IMG/VR virus record: IMGVR_UViG_3300046740_000358
Coordinates: 1 to 64,000 of that record
DNA length: 64,000 bases
DNA from: a virus
Strand: one strand, 5' to 3'
Part shown: in pieces, positions 18,137-49,416 of the stretch
Numbering within the stretch: the first letter of the stretch is position 1
How the letters are laid out: each line of letters starts with the position of its first letter
Translations under genes and position numbers: made by a program
Notes under the pieces: generated by a model
What the model saw: only the letters and a program-made list of their open reading frames with translations
Databases searched by the model: none
Told to the model about the DNA's origin: nothing

Positions 18137-18772
18137 TCAGTTGATCCAGGCGGCGAAGTTCCCGCCAGCAGTGAGCGACACAGTTGCCTGCCAGCACCCC
18201 GTCGCGTTTCCACAACTTGCAGGCGGACGGTAGGTGATCGCGCCAGCGACGGCTGTGCCCCCACCCTTGTAGGTCCAGGTCCCGCCAACGGCGTGGGTGT
18301 AGACCGAACACTGGACCCAACTGACGCTGACGAGTTGCGGGTTGTACTGCGGAGCCGGTCCGAGAGCGTCGCTCATCCCCATCGACTGGCACCGAAGCTG
18401 AATTTCAGCAACGGCAGGATTCAAGCTGTAGGTCGCAAACGTGGATGGGGCGACGGGGGCGATGTCCCCGCAGGTGCCGATGCCCGTCCCGAAAACCTTC
18501 ATCATCGTACCGGCCGGCTGCGTGGGCGTGTACGGAGGAGGGGGCAGCGGGTAGGGCGCGTAGCCCCAGGACTCGACAACCGTCTGGCGAAGCGCGAACG
18601 GTCCCTGCCCGCCGAAGTAGTACGCGCCGGCCGGCGTGAACACGCCGCCCACGTTCCACGCGGGGCTCAAGTACACCACCGCTGGGTTGACGTAGGCGCG
18701 GGCCTCGGCGGCAAACAGACTCACGGCACAAAGCGCGGCGATGGCGAGGAGCGATTTCAGTCGTGGGATCAT
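18137..18772 (-). CDS. Secreted protein
   Basis: Signal peptide ending AEARA; SD AAAGGA. Confidence 0.65.
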   Translation of the reverse strand: MIPRLKSLLAIAALCAVSLFAAEARAYVNPAVVYLSPAWNVGGVFTPAGAYYFGGQGPFALRQTVVESWGYAPYPLPPPPYTPTQPAGTMMKVFGTGIGTCGDIAPVAPSTFATYSLNPAVAEIQLRCQSMGMSDALGPAPQYNPQLVSVSWVQCSVYTHAVGGTWTYKGGGTAVAGAITYRPPASCGNATGCWQATVSLTAGGNFAAWIN

Positions 18773-41463: not shown

Positions 41464-41652
41464 TTATGTACGTACAACGGGAGGCAAGGCGAACGCTTTC
41501 AGGGCGGATTCGATCGCGTCTGTCAGCGTCATCTCCCGCGCGCGCGCTGCCTTTTCGGCCGCTTTTCTGACGTCGACAGGGATCCAGACGTTCACGCGGA
41601 CGTAGTTGCCGCCCTTGCTCCGATCGATGGTTTGCCGAGACCGTCGCGCCAC
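41464..41652 (-). CDS. Ribbon-helix-helix protein
   Basis: VRVNVWIP...RKAAE.AA....MTLTD.IE.AL; divergent from portal; start uncertain. Confidence 0.7.
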   Translation of the reverse strand: MARRSRQTIDRSKGGNYVRVNVWIPVDVRKAAEKAARAREMTLTDAIESALKAFALPPVVRT

Positions 41653-41708
41653 TCCAAGGATCCGACACCGTTTTCGCCCCGTCGTCAAGGCGGGTTACCA
41701 TGACGTCC

Positions 41709-43331
41709 ATGGCCACATTCTGGGATCGGGTGTTCCGCCGCCAACCTACAGCCGACGCGAGCTCCCTGGCTCCCCGGGCCCCCAGTGACGCGATGCTGGC
41801 CGCCATCGGGCGCGACAGCGCAGTGGCAGCGACGGCGCCGAGCCGCCCTGGCGTGTGGGACGGGATCCAGAACTGGGCCGCCGGCATCGGTGCCGGTCCC
41901 GACAAGCGCCTCGGGAATGCGTTCAACCCGATCGCGTTCCTGACCAGGCAGGAGTGCGAGGCGTACTACAACGGCGACTGGGTGATGGCCGCCGCGGTGG
42001 ACAAGCCCGTGGAGGACATGACCAGGAACTGGCCGACCCTCGTGTGGCCGGGCAAGGACAAGGACGAAGCGGCAACCAGCGCGCTCGCGGACGTAGAGGA
42101 CGAACTGCAGATCCGCGAGCACGTCGTCGAGGCCATGACCTGGGGGCGACAGTTTGGCGGCGCCGCCCTGATCCTCATCATCTCGGGTGAGGATGACTGG
42201 TCGCTCCCGATCGGGTACAAGCGCGGCGCCATCGTCGCCCCCGGGACGCAGCCCAACTATGACGCGATCGGCGTTGGGGATCTCGACCTCGTCTACCCGG
42301 TAGACCGCCACCGCCTTGCCCCCACCGGCATGGCCGACAACGCGCGCCGCGATCCCAGGACGGGCAAGTCCAACCAGAACTTCGGGCAGCCGCTGGCCTA
42401 CAGCTTCACGGACGAGGCGGGCATCAGCGAGTACAACGTCCACTGGTCGCGGGTGATCCGCTTCCACGGCAAGCGCCTGTCCCGATACGACTGGTGGCGG
42501 AACGGCCGCTGGCACGCGAGCGTGTTCCAGAAGATTCAGACCGACGTGATGGACTATGCCGCCTCCCGCGCTTCGACGGCGACGCTGGGCCTCGAGCAGG
42601 CGGTGGACATCCTGAACATCCCGGGGCTCGCCGAGAAACTGTCGACGCCCCTGGGCCGCACGCAGGTGATGGACCGCATCGCCTTCGGCGCGAACCTCAA
42701 GGGGCTCAACCGCGTCTGGCTGCTGGACGGCGGCAACAAGACCGTCAACCGTGACCCCGAGATGTACTCCCAGAAAAAGGTCGACTACAGCGGGTCGGCA
42801 GCGGCGTTGGAAAGTTGGATGTACATCATCAGCGGCGCGACGGGCGTGCCGGTCACGCGGCTATTCGGGCGCTCCCCGGGCGGGCTGAACAGCACCGGGG
42901 ACAGCGACATGAAAAACTACCGCGAGCAATGCGCGAACGGGCAACAGACCGACATGCGCCCCGCGCTGCTGCGCCTGTACGAGGTGGTGATTCGCAGCGC
43001 CATCGGCTACATGCCCGACGACCTCAAGATCGTGTTCCCCCCGATCGACGATCCCAGCCGCTCGGAGGCGGCCGAGATCTTGGCGAAGGAAGCGACGGCC
43101 TACAAAGCCTTCGTCGACATGGGGATGCCCCTCGGGATCGTCATGCGGGAGTTGAAGTCGAAGGGAACCTCGTTCACGACCCTCGAGGACGCCGACGTCT
43201 CGGCCGCAGCGGACCTCGACAAGCAGGACGCGGAGCTCGCCAAGGCGGGCGCGAAGGCGCAGGCGGCGGCGTTCAAGAAGGGCGAGGTACCGGGGGCGCC
43301 CGGCAAGACGAGGCCGGCGCCGGCGGAGTAG
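41709..43331 (+). CDS. Portal protein (DUF1073 family), inverted orientation
   Basis: Y..DW.....VD.P.EDMTR.W, W.R..GG, VH.SR...F.G, GA..VP.TRLFG.SP.G.N.TG..D..NY; leaderless TACCAT-7-ATG. Confidence 0.92.
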   Translation: MATFWDRVFRRQPTADASSLAPRAPSDAMLAAIGRDSAVAATAPSRPGVWDGIQNWAAGIGAGPDKRLGNAFNPIAFLTRQECEAYYNGDWVMAAAVDKPVEDMTRNWPTLVWPGKDKDEAATSALADVEDELQIREHVVEAMTWGRQFGGAALILIISGEDDWSLPIGYKRGAIVAPGTQPNYDAIGVGDLDLVYPVDRHRLAPTGMADNARRDPRTGKSNQNFGQPLAYSFTDEAGISEYNVHWSRVIRFHGKRLSRYDWWRNGRWHASVFQKIQTDVMDYAASRASTATLGLEQAVDILNIPGLAEKLSTPLGRTQVMDRIAFGANLKGLNRVWLLDGGNKTVNRDPEMYSQKKVDYSGSAAALESWMYIISGATGVPVTRLFGRSPGGLNSTGDSDMKNYREQCANGQQTDMRPALLRLYEVVIRSAIGYMPDDLKIVFPPIDDPSRSEAAEILAKEATAYKAFVDMGMPLGIVMRELKSKGTSFTTLEDADVSAAADLDKQDAELAKAGAKAQAAAFKKGEVPGAPGKTRPAPAE

Positions 43332-43333
43332 GG

Positions 43334-44773
43334 TCACCCGGCGTTCGGTCCGAAGGCGTCGAAGATGGACGAGGGCCCCTTCGCGATGTTCCAGCCGTTC
43401 GACATGGCATCCACCTGGTCGTCGTGGGCGTCGCCAACGCCCGTGAACTTCGAGCACTCGTCCAAGAACTTCCCCAGCCATTTCGGGGCGTCCTTCAGTT
43501 CGAAGGCGGGCACCAGCAGCCGACCGATGTTCCAAGCTGCGGCGGCCGGCTGGGCGCGGGTGAACTTGTCGCCGATAGGGACCACCTCGACGATCCGCTC
43601 GACGCCAAGTTCTCGGAGCATCTGCGGGATCGCCAGGAACGCCCCCACGCACTCTACCCCGATGGGGGTCTGCCCCCACTCCTCCTGGATGGCCAGCAGG
43701 TCACGCACGAACGCTGGGATCGTCTTCTGCTCGCGGTAGACGTAGCGAACGTAACCGATGATGTAGCGGCGGCCGTCGTCTTCGACGACATCCCGGATCG
43801 ACATGACCACCACCGCGCTGTAGTCGGCCGATGTCCTTTGGCTGGCAGCGGGGTCGGACATCAGGATGAGACGACACCCCTCGAAAGACGTTGTCGCAGG
43901 ATCGTAGTAGTGCGCCTCTCCGAATACGGATCCGCCGCGTGGGCGGGGGGCGCCCTGGTAAAGGGAGGCGAACGCGAACTCTCCGAGATCTTCCTCTCGT
44001 TCCTCGAGCTTCTTGAGCGGGTAGAGTTCGGGCCACAGCGCTTCGCCGGGCTGACGGTTGAGTGGATCGTCCTTCTCGGCGATGGCCGACAAGTTGATCA
44101 CCTTCCAGCCCTCGCGCTTGGAAAGGCGCCCGATCAGGTCGTCTTCATGCCAGCGGGTGTGGATGACGAACACCGACGCGCCCTCGAGCCGGGTCAGCGC
44201 CACCGTCTTGAACCAGTCGTCTACTTTCTCACGGAATACCTCGCTGTAGGCGTCAACCGGGCCCTTGAATGGGTCGTCGACGACCAGCATGCCCTTTATG
44301 CGCTGGCCCGTGAGGCCCGATCCGATGCCGCCGGCAAGCAGGCCACCTCCCTGCGTGGTGCGCCACTCGCTCTTGTTGTCGGTTGACTTCGAGATCTTGA
44401 TCCCAGCGCGCCCGGCGAGCTCGCGCGCCAGCACGCTTTTCGAATGCGCCTGCTGGGAGTTGTAGGAGAAGTAACCGTTCGGGTCGGACGGGTGCCGGGA
44501 CAACCACCAAGCGATCGCGTTCACGAACAGCGTGGTCTTGGCGTGTCCCGGGGGAAGCGAGATCAGGACGCGGACGGGCTCGAGTTGCGCGCGCTCAAGT
44601 TCCGCGATGATGGGGTAGAGGTGCCGCGGCGCCGGGTGGTGCGGGGACATCCGCGCGATGAAGTCGCGAAGCGACTCCCCGCCGCTCATCCCCTCCAAGC
44701 ATGTCAGAAGTTCGTTCTGCTCAGACTCAGAGAGGGTCGCCCACTCCTCAGGTGTCAGATCCGGAATGTCCAT
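43334..44773 (-). CDS. terL: Terminase large subunit
   Basis: LPPGHAKT, VVDDP.K, HTRWHEDDL.G, LYQ..P, DPA, HDDQVDA. Confidence 0.95.
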   Translation of the reverse strand: MDIPDLTPEEWATLSESEQNELLTCLEGMSGGESLRDFIARMSPHHPAPRHLYPIIAELERAQLEPVRVLISLPPGHAKTTLFVNAIAWWLSRHPSDPNGYFSYNSQQAHSKSVLARELAGRAGIKISKSTDNKSEWRTTQGGGLLAGGIGSGLTGQRIKGMLVVDDPFKGPVDAYSEVFREKVDDWFKTVALTRLEGASVFVIHTRWHEDDLIGRLSKREGWKVINLSAIAEKDDPLNRQPGEALWPELYPLKKLEEREEDLGEFAFASLYQGAPRPRGGSVFGEAHYYDPATTSFEGCRLILMSDPAASQRTSADYSAVVVMSIRDVVEDDGRRYIIGYVRYVYREQKTIPAFVRDLLAIQEEWGQTPIGVECVGAFLAIPQMLRELGVERIVEVVPIGDKFTRAQPAAAAWNIGRLLVPAFELKDAPKWLGKFLDECSKFTGVGDAHDDQVDAMSNGWNIAKGPSSIFDAFGPNAG

Positions 44774-45212
44774 CCGGCTTCTTTGTTCGAGCCTTGGCCC
44801 GTGCGATCAGTTCTGCCGCGCGGTCGCGCTTCTCCGCGGAACTCATCATCTGCACTTGGGCGATGGACAGGGGCGCTCCGTCCGGGCCAGCGACTTCGAT
44901 CTTGCGAGGACCCGTGACGTCCATCGTCTCGAAGACCATCTCGATCGACGGCTCGCGGCCGAGGAGAGCGTTCTTGTACAGCGACGCCATCACGTTCTCG
45001 ACACGGGGGACCTTGCGCGATCCGCTCTTGTCGGTGATGTCCTGAGCATCTGCAGCGAAGTAGTCCTGGACCTTTTGGCGCCAGTTCACGCCGGTCTTTC
45101 CGAGTGGGTTGAGCACCTGGCCTGGCTTGATGGGCCGTAGATTGGCGATCCGCCGCTCACGGGCCTCCGGCGTCTCCGTCCTCTTGCGCCGCGTCTTGGG
45201 TTGCCGTGCCAT
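44748..45212 (-). CDS. terS: Terminase small subunit (DUF5681-like N-terminus)
   Basis: NLRP.KPGQ..NP.G; EV.G.DG.PL; precedes terL; SD GGAGG. Confidence 0.75.
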   Translation of the reverse strand: MARQPKTRRKRTETPEARERRIANLRPIKPGQVLNPLGKTGVNWRQKVQDYFAADAQDITDKSGSRKVPRVENVMASLYKNALLGREPSIEMVFETMDVTGPRKIEVAGPDGAPLSIAQVQMMSSAEKRDRAAELIARAKARTKKPDGHSGSDT

Positions 45213-45302
45213 CGTTTCGGTGTCTCCTCCCGCCCATGATACCCTGAGACCTTGACACCCCGTCAATCTGACCGGGGGAACCTCACGTGAAGGAGCGCAA
45301 CC

Positions 45303-45413
45303 ATGGCGACGAAGAAGGCGAAGAAGACCGGGGCGAAGGGCAAGAACGGAAAGACGGGCGGCGGCAAGGGCGGCAAGCGTGCCGCGGGTGGTGGCGGCAA
45401 GGGCGGGGGCTAG
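45303..45413 (+). CDS. 36-aa Lys/Gly-rich peptide ending GKGGG
   Basis: SD AAGGAG; MATKKAKKTGAKGKNGKTGGGKGGKRAAGGGGKGGG*; absent from the ORF track. Confidence 0.7.
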   Translation: MATKKAKKTGAKGKNGKTGGGKGGKRAAGGGGKGGG

Positions 45414-45424
45414 ATAACCCTGGA

Positions 45425-45454
45425 GCCTCCCTCCTTTTGATTCAGGAGGGGGGC
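45425..45454 (+). promoter_or_regulatory. Stem-loop between the two peptide genes
   Basis: GCCTCCCTCCT pairs with AGGAGGGGGGC. Confidence 0.5.
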
Positions 45455-45468
45455 ACCCGAGGCACGCC

Positions 45469-45657
45469 ATGCCAACGAAATCCGGGATGCCCACGGCTGC
45501 TGAAAATAGGGCCGGGAACGAGTTCTTCAGAAAGAACGCGCTGAACAACGCCAAAATGCGCGCGCGGTACGCGGCCCGGAAGGCAGCAGCCGGAAAAGGC
45601 CGGGGCGCCAAGGGCGCGAAGCGCTCTGGCAAGTCCGCAGGCAAGGGTGGGGGCTGA
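45469..45657 (+). CDS. 62-aa basic peptide ending GKGGG
   Basis: ORF track; stop abuts the next gene's start. Confidence 0.7.
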   Translation: MPTKSGMPTAAENRAGNEFFRKNALNNAKMRARYAARKAAAGKGRGAKGAKRSGKSAGKGGG

Positions 45658-46332
45658 GTGAGTCAGCTTTCAGAATCGCTCGCGGTCCTCACGAGGGGCC
45701 GCGAGCTTTCTGATTCTGTCCTGGTCGCCTACTCGGGTGGCAAGGACTCGATGGTCGTGCTCGACATGTGCGTGAACACCTTCAAGCGCGTCGAGGCGTT
45801 CATGATGGAGTTCGTTCCCGGGATGCCCATGAATGACGAGCGCTGCGCCTACGCCAAGTCGCGCTGGGGCGTCACCGTCCGCCGCGGCTACCCGGATCCC
45901 TCGGGCGTCGCCGCCCTCGAGGAGGGCATCTTCTGCGACTACCCAAAGAAGAAAGGGAAGCCGCTCCACTACCGTCAGGTCCACGAGCTCGCCCGGCGTG
46001 ACAGCGGCGTCACCCTGGTAGCCACCGGCCACAAGCGCAGCGATTCCATGGGCAGACGGGCCGAGTTGCTTCGCGTCGAGAAAGACCCCCTGCGCCTGAC
46101 CCCCCTCGCCGCCTGGAACAAGGCCGACGTGCTGGGCTACCTGAAGGCCAAGAACATCCCCCTCCCCCGTGACGAGGGGCGCAACAGCAACGCGATCGGC
46201 CTGGGGGACAAGTTCCTCCTGTGGGCCTACGACCACAGCCGGCCCGACTTCGACCGGATCGCCTCCGTCTTCCTGTACGCCCCCGCATTGATCTGGCGCC
46301 GGACGTTCTACCCCGAGACTGCTGAGGACTGA
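45658..46332 (+). CDS. PAPS-reductase-like PP-loop (adenine nucleotide alpha-hydrolase) protein
   Basis: VAYSGGKDS; G.KRSDS..RR; PLA.W.K.DV..Y. Confidence 0.88.
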   Translation: MSQLSESLAVLTRGRELSDSVLVAYSGGKDSMVVLDMCVNTFKRVEAFMMEFVPGMPMNDERCAYAKSRWGVTVRRGYPDPSGVAALEEGIFCDYPKKKGKPLHYRQVHELARRDSGVTLVATGHKRSDSMGRRAELLRVEKDPLRLTPLAAWNKADVLGYLKAKNIPLPRDEGRNSNAIGLGDKFLLWAYDHSRPDFDRIASVFLYAPALIWRRTFYPETAED

Positions 46333-46337
46333 CCACC

Positions 46338-47088
46338 ATGGCCAAGGCACCGCGCGAGCCGACGACGTCGAAGGCGCCCAAACCTCCCAAGGCGGCGGAG
46401 CCCGTCCCCCACCTCACGAACGAGACCTTCAAGATGGAGGTCGTCCCTCGGACGAAGATCAAGCCAGCTCCGTACAACCCGCGGTCCATCACCAGCGAGG
46501 CCAAGCGCAAGTTGGGGGCTGTGATCGACTCCCTCGGGATGCTGATGCCCTTGGTCTGGAACAAGCGCTCCGGCAACCTGGTCAGCGGGCACCAGCGGCT
46601 CAACAAGCTCGGACAAGACCATGGGGTACCCGTCGAAACAGAAGGACTACACGTTGACGGTGGCGGTGGTCGACCTGGACGACGCCCACGAGCGGGCCGC
46701 CAACGCCGCGATCAACAACGCGGCCGCGCAGGGCGACTTCGACATGGAGGCGCTCGAGAACATGCTCCGCTTCCCCGGGGTCTCCGAGAACATCGAGGCC
46801 ACCGGGTGGGACCAAGCCGACGTGATGCGGCTATTCGGGTCGATGGACACGTCCAGCAGCGACGCGGCCAAGGAAGCGCAGGCGGCTGCTGACGCTGCCC
46901 GAGCGCACGCCGAGAAGTACGACGCCGAGATGCAGGCCGCCCACCAGAAGAGTTCCGACGACTTCTTCATGGTCGTCATCTTCAAGGACTCGGACGCCCG
47001 GACCGCCTTCGCCACGAAGCACGGCCTCGACGACAACCGCTACCAGTCCGCGGCGGCCTTCGAAGCGCTGATCGCCGGCGACGACTGA
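46338..47088 (+). CDS. ParB/Srx-like protein split by a +1 frameshift near 46611
   Basis: PAPYNPR.I, PLVWNKRSGNLVSGHQR in one frame; V..VDLD..E...N...NN..AQG.FD in the next; removing one G gives LDKTMGY. Confidence 0.8.
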
Positions 47089-47240
47089 TCCGGGGCCCAC
47101 GCCAGCACCGCCGCTCGGATCGCCGCGCTGACCGTCAGGCCGGCCACCGATGCCTTGCGCTTCAGGCCCTCGAGTTCGGACGGCGACAGCCGCACCCGGA
47201 CGGGTGGGATCTCGGTCCGCTTGTGGTTGGTCCTGCCCAT
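47040..47240 (-). CDS. Ribbon-helix-helix (MobC-like) protein
   Basis: VRVRLSPSE...LKRKA...GLTVS..IR. Confidence 0.7.
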   Translation of the reverse strand: MGRTNHKRTEIPPVRVRLSPSELEGLKRKASVAGLTVSAAIRAAVLAWAPDQSSPAISASKAAADW

Positions 47241-47323
47241 GTGCCGTTTTCCCGCCTCCCGCTTTGTGTGGCCACACAATCTCGCCCCTTGCGAATCCCC
47301 GCGATCGGCCCCACGTTCCCCCC

Positions 47324-47485
47324 ATGAACCTCGTAACCGTCTCGGGCCTCGTGATGCTGGTCGGTGGGCTCCTCTACTTGCTCCCGGGGGCCCCCGCTCC
47401 TGAGCGCCTGGGCCGGCTGTCGACCATGGGGCTGGTCATGTTCGGGGTGGGGTTGTTCTCGCTGCTCGTCCGCGCTTGGCGCTGA
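47324..47485 (+). CDS. Small two-TM membrane protein, leaderless
   Basis: TTGCGA-17-CACGTT-6-ATG; two hydrophobic helices. Confidence 0.6.
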   Translation: MNLVTVSGLVMLVGGLLYLLPGAPAPERLGRLSTMGLVMFGVGLFSLLVRAWR

Positions 47486-47810
47486 CGCCGTTCGCCCGGC
47501 ACATCGCCTCGACGCTCGGGTAGAGCGCGTGCCCCCCGTCGCTCACCACCTCCAGCGCGGCGGCCGCCTCCCCGTCCGTGAGCACCTTCATCCGCAGGGC
47601 GATCGACGGCAGCCCGCGCGCCCTCTGGTCCAGCAGCCATCCCGCGCAGAACCCGCGCTCGGCGTCGGGCAACCCGCCTTGCTTGTGGCAAGCGTAGGTG
47701 GCTACGATCTGGTCGGCCTCGGTCTCCAGCAGGCGTTCGAATTCCTCCCGGTCCCACAACTTCCTCGGCGCGTCCTTGCGGTACGGGCAGTTCTCACAGG
47801 GGGTCTTCAT
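47436..47810 (-). CDS. DUF6283-like Cys-rich protein
   Basis: PC.NCPYR.D.P..LW..EE..RL, ACH, CAGW, LY.S. Confidence 0.7.
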   Translation of the reverse strand: MKTPCENCPYRKDAPRKLWDREEFERLLETEADQIVATYACHKQGGLPDAERGFCAGWLLDQRARGLPSIALRMKVLTDGEAAAALEVVSDGGHALYPSVEAMCRANGVSAKRGRAARTTPPRT

Positions 47811-47818
47811 GTGGGCTC

Positions 47819-48205
47819 TCACGGTGCGGGCTCCACGTAGGGCTCGTCGAAGTCGAGCCAAGTATCAGCGCCTGCCGCAATGCTGACCACCCCGATACCG
47901 TGGGCCGCGCAGAAGGCATCAGCCGCTTGCAGGATGGCCGACCGTCTCTCCTGCGCTCTGTAGCCGTATCGGTAGCCTGCCTCGGCCGCCATCAGCACCA
48001 AGTCGATGGTGTTGGTTTCCCGGTCCGTGGTCCAGCAGCGCCGGCACAGCCGAGGGCGTTCGGTCACCCGGATCGGGATGCCGCACGCCCTGCAGGTCCC
48101 GTTCGGCGTGTTCGCCTTCACCTCGGCCCACGCCAAGCGCTCGTCCTTCAGCTTGGCGCGCGCGGCCGCCCTCTCCTGGCAGTGGGGGCACTTGGGGCAA
48201 CTCAT
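47819..48205 (-). CDS. Zinc-finger hypothetical protein
   Basis: Multiple CxxC. Confidence 0.55.
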   Translation of the reverse strand: MSCPKCPHCQERAAARAKLKDERLAWAEVKANTPNGTCRACGIPIRVTERPRLCRRCWTTDRETNTIDLVLMAAEAGYRYGYRAQERRSAILQAADAFCAAHGIGVVSIAAGADTWLDFDEPYVEPAP

Positions 48206-48208
48206 GGC

Positions 48209-48958
48209 TCAGAACCGATCCGGCTCGAGGGCAGCGGGCTCCGCCTCGCCCGGCGATTGCTCCCCGGGCAAGTCCGGCATGCTCGGGTCCACCTCCCGCA
48301 CCAGCGCCGCGATCCCCTTGGTGACCGCCTCGTCAGCCCCGGCCGACTGGGCCAGCGTCTGCGCGATCCTCGTCACGCAGTAGGCGTTCGCGTGGTACCC
48401 CCGGCGTGTGAACTTCAGCAGGCGCAGCATGGTGCCGCCGGCGGTGTTGCCGGCAGGCGCCATGAAGCGCAGCCGCTTGGCCGCCATGTCGACGTAGAAG
48501 CGCGGGTCGCAGACCGAGAGCCACTGCCCTGCGGCGGCGTCGCACCAGATGGCGGCGCGCGCGATCGTGAAGTCGAACGATTCGATCAACTTCCTCGGGT
48601 CGTCGAACGTCCACTTCGTGATGAACTGGATCATCAGTTCGCCGCGGGCGGTGAGGGAGATCGCGTTGTCGGTCTCGGTCCGTCGGTACTCGATAGGCCG
48701 CGCCTCGTCCTCGAGCGCGGTGCACACCAGCTTTCCAGCCATCACGGTGGCGGCGACCTCATTCGCGCAGAACACGTCGACGTCGGAGGGCTTCTCGTTC
48801 GCGATCACCGTGCGGATGAACCCGCCGGCCACCACCAGCGGGGTGGTGCGGTTCTTGTCGGTCATCATCCAGCGCAACTTCGACGGCAGGCGGCGCGCGA
48901 TGCGCTCCACGTCGTCGGGGTCAAGTTCGGTCGTTTCCATCGTCGCCCTTTCGCTCAT
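48209..48958 (-). CDS. Nucleotidyltransferase (CCA/poly(A) polymerase head-like)
   Basis: VAGG.IR...DVDVF; FDFT; RL.KF..RGY. Confidence 0.8.
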   Translation of the reverse strand: MSERATMETTELDPDDVERIARRLPSKLRWMMTDKNRTTPLVVAGGFIRTVIANEKPSDVDVFCANEVAATVMAGKLVCTALEDEARPIEYRRTETDNAISLTARGELMIQFITKWTFDDPRKLIESFDFTIARAAIWCDAAAGQWLSVCDPRFYVDMAAKRLRFMAPAGNTAGGTMLRLLKFTRRGYHANAYCVTRIAQTLAQSAGADEAVTKGIAALVREVDPSMPDLPGEQSPGEAEPAALEPDRF

Positions 48959-49416
48959 GGTCCCTCGATCTCCCCTCGGTACGTCCACAGCCCGAGCTGC
49001 CCGCGGACTGGAATCGGCGTCTTGAACAGCCGGGGTTTGGCCAACTCCCAAGCGAACCGGCCTAGCGTGAAGTCTCCCCACCCGAGGTGGTCTGTCCACT
49101 TGATGGCGCCGGCGGGTCGGCAGGCCACGAGGTCGACCGCGCCGAGGATGCAGCCCAGTCCCAGGGATTCGTTCTCGGTGAGTTCGCGGAACCTGCGCGC
49201 CAGCGCCGAGTCGTTTGTCCCCGTGTCTATCGCGGCGAACGGCGCGCCGTTGCGGACGCCATTCCGGATGACCGAGAAGTCCACCGCCTTCCCCGCGTGG
49301 ATCAGCAGCGGGCCGCGGTACTTCGTTGGCCAGGACCGCGTCTCGAAGCGCTTCAGCCCGGCGAAGATGGCGGCCACGTGGGGTTGCTTGATCGTGATGG
49401 TCTTGTGTTCGGTCAT
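48955..49416 (-). CDS. ASCH-domain protein
   Basis: ITIKQP.....G.K.FETRSW.T.YRG.L.IHAG; P.RG.LGLW. Confidence 0.9.
   Translation of the reverse strand: MTEHKTITIKQPHVAAIFAGLKRFETRSWPTKYRGPLLIHAGKAVDFSVIRNGVRNGAPFAAIDTGTNDSALARRFRELTENESLGLGCILGAVDLVACRPAGAIKWTDHLGWGDFTLGRFAWELAKPRLFKTPIPVRGQLGLWTYRGEIEGP

Follow-up and report, generated by a model that had tools for sequence, protein, structure and literature searches.

A conserved phage module of basic glycine-tailed peptides, a cysteine-independent PP-loop enzyme and a ParB-like protein

Several systems are known in which a PP-loop enzyme acts together with the flexible glycine-rich tail of a partner protein. In the TtuA–TtuB pair, and also in Ncs6/NcsA with Urm1/SAMP2, a PP-loop ATP pyrophosphatase cooperates with a small protein whose flexible C-terminal Gly-Gly tail reaches into the active site. 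In Cap9–CdnD (deazaguanylation in the type IV cyclic-oligonucleotide-based antiphage signaling system, CBASS) and QatC–QatB, a small PP-loop enzyme forms an amide bond with the Gly-rich flexible tail of its partner through an adenylated carboxylate. In the solved structures of TtuA–TtuB (5gha) and Cap9–CdnD, the partner tail lies inside the PP-loop active site. Among phages, pairs of genes annotated as 3'-phosphoadenosine 5'-phosphosulfate (PAPS) reductase and ParB-like nuclease (the IbrA/IbrB type) are found before terminase genes, for example in BS-TP2 (gp54/gp55), LR1 and JNU_P7, and the Gly-tailed protein encoded with them is listed as hypothetical. The same pair is found at the same place in the stretch of 64,000 nucleotides analysed here (the window; positions 1 to 64,000 of IMG/VR record IMGVR_UViG_3300046740_000358), which is part of a 75,172-bp virus genome that carries direct terminal repeats and has about 66% G+C. 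The locus carries a conserved phage module that does not belong to sulfur metabolism and consists of one or more basic Gly-tailed peptides, a Cys-independent PP-loop enzyme, a ParB-CTPase-like protein, and often an ASCH-domain protein. No description of this module was found in the literature. The members of the module and the elements within it are as follows.

45303–45413, plus strand: peptide 1, 36 aa, GKGGG end (G+C content at third codon positions, GC3, 0.89; family features)
45422–45457, plus strand: RNA hairpin between both peptide genes (–34.3 kcal/mol, z –2.4)
45469–45657, plus strand: peptide 2, 62 aa, GKGGG end (GC3 0.75)
45658–46332, plus strand: PP-loop ATP-pyrophosphatase-type enzyme, 224 aa (SGGKDS, Pfam PAPS_reduct, fold)
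46338 to about 46592, plus strand: ParB-like gene, N-terminal part to the GHQR motif (frame comparison, GC3)
46588–46595, plus strand: +1 frameshift site in the ParB-like gene (comparison with related loci L001, L002, and L061)
46621–47088, plus strand: C-terminal part of the ParB-like gene, 155 codons starting at an in-family Met (GC3 0.93)

An initial annotation of the window had described two basic peptides of 36 and 62 aa, both ending in GKGGG followed by a stop codon, and both open reading frames (ORFs) were found as described, with coding-type GC3 and a Shine–Dalgarno sequence. The 36-codon frame is preceded by GAAGGAG (45289–45295), 7 nt 5' of the ATG, and its product starts with MATKK and contains 10 Lys, 15 Gly, and no acidic residue, while peptide 2 contains 16 Lys plus Arg and two acidic residues. 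The terminal five codons of both genes are identical at 14 of 15 bases. The neighbour genes show a GC3 of 0.77–0.93; a 298-codon minus-strand ORF overlapping the peptide genes has a GC3 of 0.57 in that stretch, indicating that it is a mere upstream extension of the small-terminase-like gene terS. The order of peptides and then the SGGKDS enzyme was confirmed, since the TGA of peptide 2 (45655–45657) abuts the GTG of the enzyme gene (45658) in the same frame. The window contains 760 ORFs of at least 20 aa; six of these have Gly as the last residue and three or more Gly among the last five, and the two peptides are the only basic ones with high GC3. The hairpin between the two genes has an 11-bp G+C-rich stem with AGGAGG in its 3' arm and no U tail. 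For neither peptide was a family match found in Pfam, PHROGs, NCBIfam, or PADLOC, and the protein atlas gave no usable match. Chance open frames in G+C-rich DNA might be suspected from the short, low-complexity sequences, the failure of gene callers to detect the 36-aa ORF, and the lack of Pfam, PHROGs, and protein atlas matches. The probability of this explanation is negligible given the coding-type GC3, the Shine–Dalgarno sequence, and the start–stop coupling, and it is refuted by equivalents in loci of 40–70% G+C, as compared with 1% of control positions. As judged from sequence, both peptides are genuine genes of a widespread module.

The equivalents were identified in a comparative survey. 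A total of 60 viral and 16 genomic loci encoding enzyme relatives were fetched, and the linkage of peptide genes was analysed in 37 viral loci of the ParB-linked clade (enzyme identity 23–45%, G+C 40–70%), using the strict rule that the ORF ends between –200 and +40 nt from the enzyme start and that its product has a Lys plus Arg fraction of at least 0.18, Gly as the last residue, and at least two Gly in the last five. The rule was satisfied in 21 of the 37 loci, as compared with 48 of 4754 control positions (1.0%) of the same loci; small ORFs generally end in Gly in 7.8% of cases. Without the strict rule, a short basic protein with a Gly-rich end is encoded immediately 5' of the enzyme gene in almost all loci of this clade. 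A total of 45 candidate peptides were collected, with starts picked by ATG and Shine–Dalgarno only. They range from 24 to 141 aa (median 47 aa), are of low complexity, and nearly lack Cys; 34 of them end in Gly, most hold at least two Gly in the last five residues, and 36 start with Met-Ala (MA), the N-termini continuing with basic residues. Any Lys is missing from three. On the enzyme tree, Gly ends span both deep clades, while the other ends are scattered. Among 23 more distant PAPS-reductase-like loci, mostly without ParB, a tailed ORF was found in just two or three, at least one of which has a ParB fragment. The check proposed in the initial annotation, a search for Gly-terminated small ORFs in homologous PP-loop plus ParB loci, thus came out positive.

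Paralogues within one genome share their tail: GKGGG twice in the present phage, RGGQGG twice in locus L033, TGGAG twice in L012, and GSSAG twice in L002–L005. Lactobacillus phage JNU_P7 (L078, 3633–5520) encodes three module proteins of 92–140 aa around the ParB gene, with dissimilar bodies and the ends GSTGSKGG, GSTGSRGG, and SFGSKGG. In L. reuteri prophage LR1, a 141-aa protein with the end GSSGKSSG is encoded between the enzyme and ParB genes, and in Bacteroides phage BS-TP2, gp53 (GSNG end) lies between the ASCH gene gp52 and the enzyme gene gp54, followed by the ParB gene gp55. In L027 and L028, the flanks, the enzyme gene, and the ParB gene are 92–98% identical in DNA sequence, whereas the peptide genes (L027 3714–3869 and L028 3715–3870) are only about 60% identical, with indels, and are conserved at their ends alone, in the opening codons and the final eight. 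By these comparisons, the glycine tail, which is lineage-specific, is the constrained element, and the peptide core is hypervariable.

The linkage to the enzyme, the sharing of tails, and the absence of any required Lys together suggest that the C-terminal Gly is the most likely contact point with the enzyme, and the enzyme probably acts on the peptide tails. The main alternative, itself rather doubtful, is that the peptides are no substrates of the enzyme but histone-tail-like proteins that bind nucleic acids or condense DNA as packaging accessories beside ParB and the terminase, possibly inside the capsid, with the Gly end as a flexible, protease-resistant, low-complexity tail, and that the enzyme modifies a nucleotide or nucleic acid alone. 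The extreme Lys/Arg/Gly-rich composition with almost no acidic residues and the position next to terS and terL agree with such a role, high expression of a protein needed in stoichiometric amounts would agree with the MA start and with the hairpin that follows peptide 1, and a hypervariable core fits selection on composition only. This alternative leaves unexplained why Gly is the very last residue in 34 of 45 peptides, why dissimilar proteins of one phage carry identical last five to eight residues, and why the peptides accompany the ParB-linked enzymes but are missing from most of the sampled related loci without ParB.

Other small ORFs and hairpins near the peptide genes or resembling them were also noted. 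A third peptide paralogue at 41546–41618, suggested by inverted-repeat matches, was rejected as a chance match within a small ORF; the ORF at 41464–41688 (minus strand), just upstream of the portal gene start, is ribbon-helix-helix-like by eye, and the stretches of 13–17 nt that it shares with the peptide genes are fortuitous. The 37-aa ORF at 18441–18554 (plus strand, GC3 0.86) has a GGGGSG end, is hydrophobic but not basic, and may be an unrelated small gene. In L002 (3159–3245) and L003 (2018–2110), an extra tiny ORF composed nearly entirely of Gly and Lys, with an MGCGGKGKGK start and a GKGK end, sits upstream of the GSSAG peptides and is conserved between both loci. At 45678–45706 of the window, 21 nt past the stop of peptide 2 and within the first 20 codons of the enzyme gene, a terminator-like hairpin of 12 pairs (9 G–C) is followed by TTTCTGATTC. 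This hairpin could lower expression of the enzyme relative to the peptide; the number of terminator-like sites in the region is not above that of shuffled controls.

The enzyme carries the pyrophosphate-binding loop, SGGKDS, after the first strand at residues 26–31 and matches Pfam PAPS_reduct (PF01507; E 2e-11, 44.5 bits against a cutoff of 22.5). The 193-aa version given by the gene caller begins after the PP-loop and is too short. The family comprises 494 clusters (50% identity, E at most 1e-30), nearly all of stand-alone proteins of about 225 aa; the closest relative, P0002, is 65% identical. Natural fusions of peptide and enzyme were looked for as well, but the few longer family members carry unrelated N- or C-terminal extensions. 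In an alignment of 42 family members, S26, G28, K29, D30, G124, and P149 are invariant, as is the PP-loop pattern SxGKDS, and none of the 42 members' Cys positions is invariant, the only frequent one, position 38, being Ala or Val in about one-quarter. A Cys38 that had appeared invariant in a 22-sequence alignment failed in the 42 sequences, and the idea of an E1-like thioester was dropped. As stated in the initial annotation, the enzyme lacks the C-terminal ECG motif (ECGLH type) of PAPS reductases, and its score with the NCBIfam CysH model NF002537 (34.9 bits) is far below the cutoff of 154, as are the scores with every other equivalog model. IbrA is about twice as long as the present enzyme and has a C-terminal DUF3440 domain. 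No Pfam match to DUF3440 was found in the 224-aa enzyme at E up to 0.1.

The absence of an invariant Cys excludes the chemistry of PAPS or adenosine 5'-phosphosulfate (APS) reductases, sulfur transfer through an iron–sulfur (Fe–S) cluster or a sacrificial sulfur, and an E1-like thioester, and leaves adenylation followed by the attack of a nitrogen or oxygen nucleophile. A sulfur-based function, in which the tail serves as a thiocarboxylate carrier (as in TtuB, ThiS, and MoaD), the enzyme performs DndC-like phosphorothioation with ParB in the place of DndB, or the gene is a genuine PAPS reductase auxiliary metabolic gene, is therefore very improbable and largely refuted. It is suggested by the Pfam match, by TtuA, LarE, and APS reductase among the top fold matches, and by the pairing of a PAPS-reductase-family protein with a ParB-like protein in DndC/DndB in the literature. 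The alignment of 42 family members, however, leaves no Cys for an Fe–S site, for a persulfide or sacrificial role, or for an ECGLH motif, the CysH score stays far short of its cutoff, and neither a cysteine desulfurase nor an E1-like gene was found among the recurrent neighbours of the module. By motif, residue conservation, and model scores, the enzyme is classified as an ATP-pyrophosphatase-type PP-loop protein, neither a PAPS reductase nor a sulfur transferase.

The AlphaFold (AF2) model of the enzyme has a predicted local distance difference test (pLDDT) value of 92.5 and shows a generic PP-loop HUP/Rossmann-like fold. It matches the PAPS domain of FAD synthase, LarE, APS reductase, QueC, CysD, GMP and NAD synthetases, TilS, and Cap9 with Z values of 10–14 (Cap9, 10.8), and no PP-loop subfamily stands out. 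The top Foldseek match is TtuA, including the TtuA–TtuB complex 5gha, with a template modelling (TM) score of about 0.5, and the best PDB match by sequence profile is Cap9 (E 6e-5). A predicted co-fold of the enzyme with ATP and the 62-aa peptide gave a score of 0.00 with a partner pLDDT below 50 and speaks neither for nor against a complex. The kinship to TilS and Cap9 raises the question of polarity: a nucleobase or a small carboxylate might be adenylated and then attacked by a peptide amine, either of the N-terminal Ala after removal of Met or of Lys, the Gly tail being a docking element. The conserved MA start and the action of Cap9 and QatC on the Gly-rich N-terminal tails of their partners also agree with this scheme, which we nevertheless consider quite improbable. 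The Gly-rich end is C-terminal here, the QueC match (PF06508; E 0.082, 12.8 bits against a cutoff of 22) is below cutoff with no conserved Cys for the zinc site, and no deazaguanine synthesis genes were seen adjoining the module. In addition, the three Lys-free peptides argue against a Lys amine as the nucleophile, leaving the termini as reactive sites.

The ParB-like gene lies 3' of the enzyme gene in all of the 46 loci. Neither the present gene nor the relatives checked gave a match to Pfam ParBc. The AF2 model of the intact homologue from L061 (pLDDT 83) is best matched by Foldseek to ParB–CDP (6sdk, E 3e-7), further matches being Caulobacter and Myxococcus ParB, Noc, and KorB, and a GGHQR motif of the GxxR nucleotide-binding type is conserved among the ParB-like proteins. 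The N-terminal part matches the N-terminal part of a type II methyltransferase model (3e-12; PHROG and PADLOC models of ParB–methyltransferase fusions), in line with the earlier suggestion of a ParB type tied to DNA modification. The initial annotation needs one correction, as its ParB/Srx-like gene is not intact and lies in two frames. By three-frame comparison with L001, L002, and L061, a +1 frameshift was located at about 46590, inside the N-terminal domain just past GHQR, where one extra base is present in ...AAG CTC G GAC AAG.... The frame after this site is open with a GC3 of 0.93, while the out-of-frame continuation to 46892 has a GC3 of 0.46, indicating that the frameshift is recent and that the module may be only partly functional in this phage. 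A Logan contig of a soil metagenome run, the probable source, is identical from 45250 to 47150, the frameshift included, at a mean depth of about 38. Two assemblies of the same reads therefore agree, and the frameshift cannot be put down to one assembler. This run was the only DNA run listed for the sequence, and no RNA run was listed. Programmed frameshifting was considered and rejected, because no slippery site was seen at about 46590 and the relatives are single-frame. The ParB-like gene of the closest relative, L001, is frameshifted elsewhere, and that of JNU_P7 is annotated as two coding sequences divided at the domain boundary.

The genes surrounding the module in the window are as follows.

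43334–44773, minus strand: terminase large subunit terL (family and profile searches)
44748–45212, minus strand: small-terminase-like gene terS (weak DUF5681 match, the same as Bacteroides phage BS-TP2 gp56)
45213–45302: divergent intergenic region between terS (minus strand) and the peptide operon (plus strand), holding the Shine–Dalgarno sequence GAAGGAG at 45289–45295
48955–49416, minus strand: ASCH-domain gene, 153 aa, GLKRFETR (PF04266 match, motif)

The divergent orientation of terS had been noted in the initial annotation and was confirmed. In this phage, both terS and terL are divergent from the module, whereas most loci have the order peptide, enzyme, ParB, terS, and terL on one strand. 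A promoter search of the divergent region (45213–45302) gave no sigma-70 consensus. At 41700–45212, the plus-strand portal gene converges on the minus-strand terL and terS genes; in L001 the portal, terS, terL, peptide, enzyme, and ParB genes are all on one strand, so that the terS–terL block of the window is inverted relative to L001. The two terL genes belong to different families, and the block is not bordered by long inverted repeats. Two minus-strand genes separate the module from the ASCH gene, one for a small ribbon-helix-helix/NikA-like protein (47040–47279) and one for a DUF6283 protein (47436–47861; E 1.5e-24).

The association with the ASCH-domain gene was not noticed in the initial annotation. 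Present in 21 of 46 loci, this gene ranks third among the recurrent neighbours, and it is located just upstream or convergent after ParB. The ASCH protein of the window gave 21.2 bits with PF04266, exactly at the cutoff of 21.2, and the motif GxKxxExR of the GKER subgroup of amidohydrolases, present in it as GLKRFETR, is kept in all 19 full-length ASCH neighbours. Among proteins of this type, YqfB hydrolyses N4-acylcytosines (PMC6972931), and the Lys and Glu of GxKxxExR are essential for N4-acetylcytidine amidohydrolase activity (bioRxiv 10.64898/2026.02.27.708502).

This gene context bears on another explanation, maturation of the type known for ribosomally synthesized and post-translationally modified peptides (RiPPs). 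The C-terminal Gly would be adenylated and attacked by ammonia, a small amine, or the amine of the N-terminal Ala of the same or another peptide, giving an amidated, cyclised, or concatenated polycation, for instance for host takeover or anti-defence, with ParB and ASCH acting separately. Stand-alone Cys-free PP-loop enzymes typically form amides, and NAD synthetase, QueC, and lasso cyclases of the asparagine synthetase type are among the fold matches; conservation of both termini (MA in 36 and Gly in 34 of 45), the occurrence of several copies that resemble precursors and vary strongly in the core, and a hairpin after the first peptide gene, as in many precursor–enzyme operons, also agree with such maturation. 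It appears distinctly unlikely, however, for it accounts neither for the ParB gene found in each of the 46 loci nor for the location beside the packaging genes or the link to ASCH; genes for a transporter, a protease, or immunity were not seen in the module loci, and the enzyme falls into no known RiPP class.

The mechanism that we favour, tentatively and short of an even chance, is that the enzyme adenylates the C-terminal Gly of the peptides and couples them through an amide linkage to an amine, which may be that of a nucleic acid. From the observed genes, linkage, folds, and motifs, we infer every chemical step and the acceptor as follows. The flexible Gly tail would enter the PP-loop active site, where its terminal carboxylate would attack the alpha-phosphate of ATP to give a peptidyl-adenylate, and an amine would then displace AMP with formation of the amide bond. 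The acceptor would most likely be the exocyclic amine of a phage DNA base, possibly of tRNA; in that case, the enzyme would be recruited to DNA around packaging by the ParB-like clamp, and the resulting N-acyl base would be recognized or hydrolysed by the ASCH protein. A nucleic acid acceptor is suggested because ParB is invariable, its domains are akin to those of the methyltransferase fusions, and a predicted ASCH amidohydrolase recurs. The full DNA conjugation version, in which interchangeable cationic peptides are ligated through their C-terminal carboxylate to exocyclic amines of DNA bases, targeted by the ParB CTP clamp at packaging, with ASCH reversing or reading the mark, is unlikely; the corresponding description of the module as a genetically encoded, hypervariable DNA hypermodification is held to be just as doubtful. 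The initial annotation, which had the enzyme adenylate the C-terminal Gly and ligate the peptides to DNA bases or to a protein, is thus supported in part, namely for the peptides and their linkage, the enzyme class, and the ParB type; the charge neutralisation and restriction shielding that it proposed are conjecture.

Several observations weigh against the tail-activation mechanism. About one-quarter of the peptides have no Gly end (GAGQ, GGGSH, SGTDS, GSDSK, SSDSK, KKQKK, KPKKK, and GSREH). The MA start (36 of 45) is as conserved as the Gly end and is explained only as a high-expression signal. ASCH is absent within 4 kb in more than half of the loci, and ParB is broken here and in L001 at different sites, and yet the depth is about 38-fold, so that the clamp may be dispensable. 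Gene linkage alone cannot distinguish an enzyme substrate from a co-acting DNA-binding protein, and the chemistry assigned to each member of the module is predicted from its sequence.

The enzyme family is routinely annotated as PAPS reductase and, in viromes, interpreted as an auxiliary metabolic gene for sulfur, a label that is wrong on the present evidence. The module adjoins the packaging genes of widely differing phages, among them soil viruses of the Acidobacteriota type and the Bacteroides and Lactobacillus phages of the gut, and its Gly-tailed basic peptides represent a gene class often missed by gene callers. If the enzyme activates the tails, it would provide a third route to the activation of a protein C-terminus, beside E1 enzymes and PafA-type ligases, and a phage-side counterpart of the Cap9/QatC chemistry. 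With DNA as the acceptor, the reaction would represent a hypermodification of a new class, with a bearing on restriction evasion and on the sequencing of phage DNA. Cultured carriers of the module are BS-TP2, LR1 (a prophage of L. reuteri ATCC PTA 6475), and JNU_P7 (a phage of L. gasseri).

Among the systems with which the module may be compared, ubiquitin-like and Pup-like modifiers share with it a small protein with a Gly end (or Gly-Gly-Gln, to be compared with the GAGQ variant here), disorder in the case of Pup, and, by the proposed mechanism, activation by ATP at the C-terminus. The present enzyme, however, is not an E1 of the ThiF fold and not a ligase of the PafA type, and it has no catalytic Cys for a thioester, the peptides are of low complexity without a family match, unlike the beta-grasp of ubiquitin-like modifiers, and neither an E2 gene nor a deconjugating JAB gene was seen in the module loci. 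DndC–DndB and the ParB–methyltransferase fusions resemble the module in joining a ParB/Srx-fold protein, by gene pairing or by fusion, to an enzyme that modifies DNA, and DndC is itself a PAPS-reductase-family PP-loop protein. The module has no DndA, DndD, or DndE, no Fe–S cysteines, and no methyltransferase domain, and both Dnd and the fusions are without a peptide component. With amidohydrolases of the YqfB/TthASCH type, the ASCH protein of the module shares the Lys and Glu of GxKxxExR, and an N-acyl base would be its predicted substrate in these phages. As to the acylation of a base, TmcAL reportedly forms an acyl-adenylate from a carboxylate and acylates cytidine at N4, according to work from 2018. 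TmcAL, which catalyses acetate-dependent acetylation (preprint), is not a PP-loop enzyme, unlike the enzyme of the module.

The closest systems remain those with a tailed partner. TtuB is a folded beta-grasp protein and receives its thiocarboxylate from a separate E1-like enzyme, whereas the partners in the module are disordered basic peptides; TtuA needs a Cys-held Fe–S cluster, whereas the module enzyme has no invariant Cys, and the similarity of the two folds stays at a TM score of about 0.5. Cap9 and QatC, which the proposed reaction resembles in chemistry, belong to bacterial defence and to the QueC family with its zinc site, whereas the module belongs to phages and its enzyme to the PAPS_reduct family. 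The polarity is also opposite: Cap9 and QatC use an N-terminal tail, which is the nucleophile that attacks adenylated 7-carboxy-7-deazaguanine, whereas the tail of the module is C-terminal and is carried by free peptides, often encoded in several copies.

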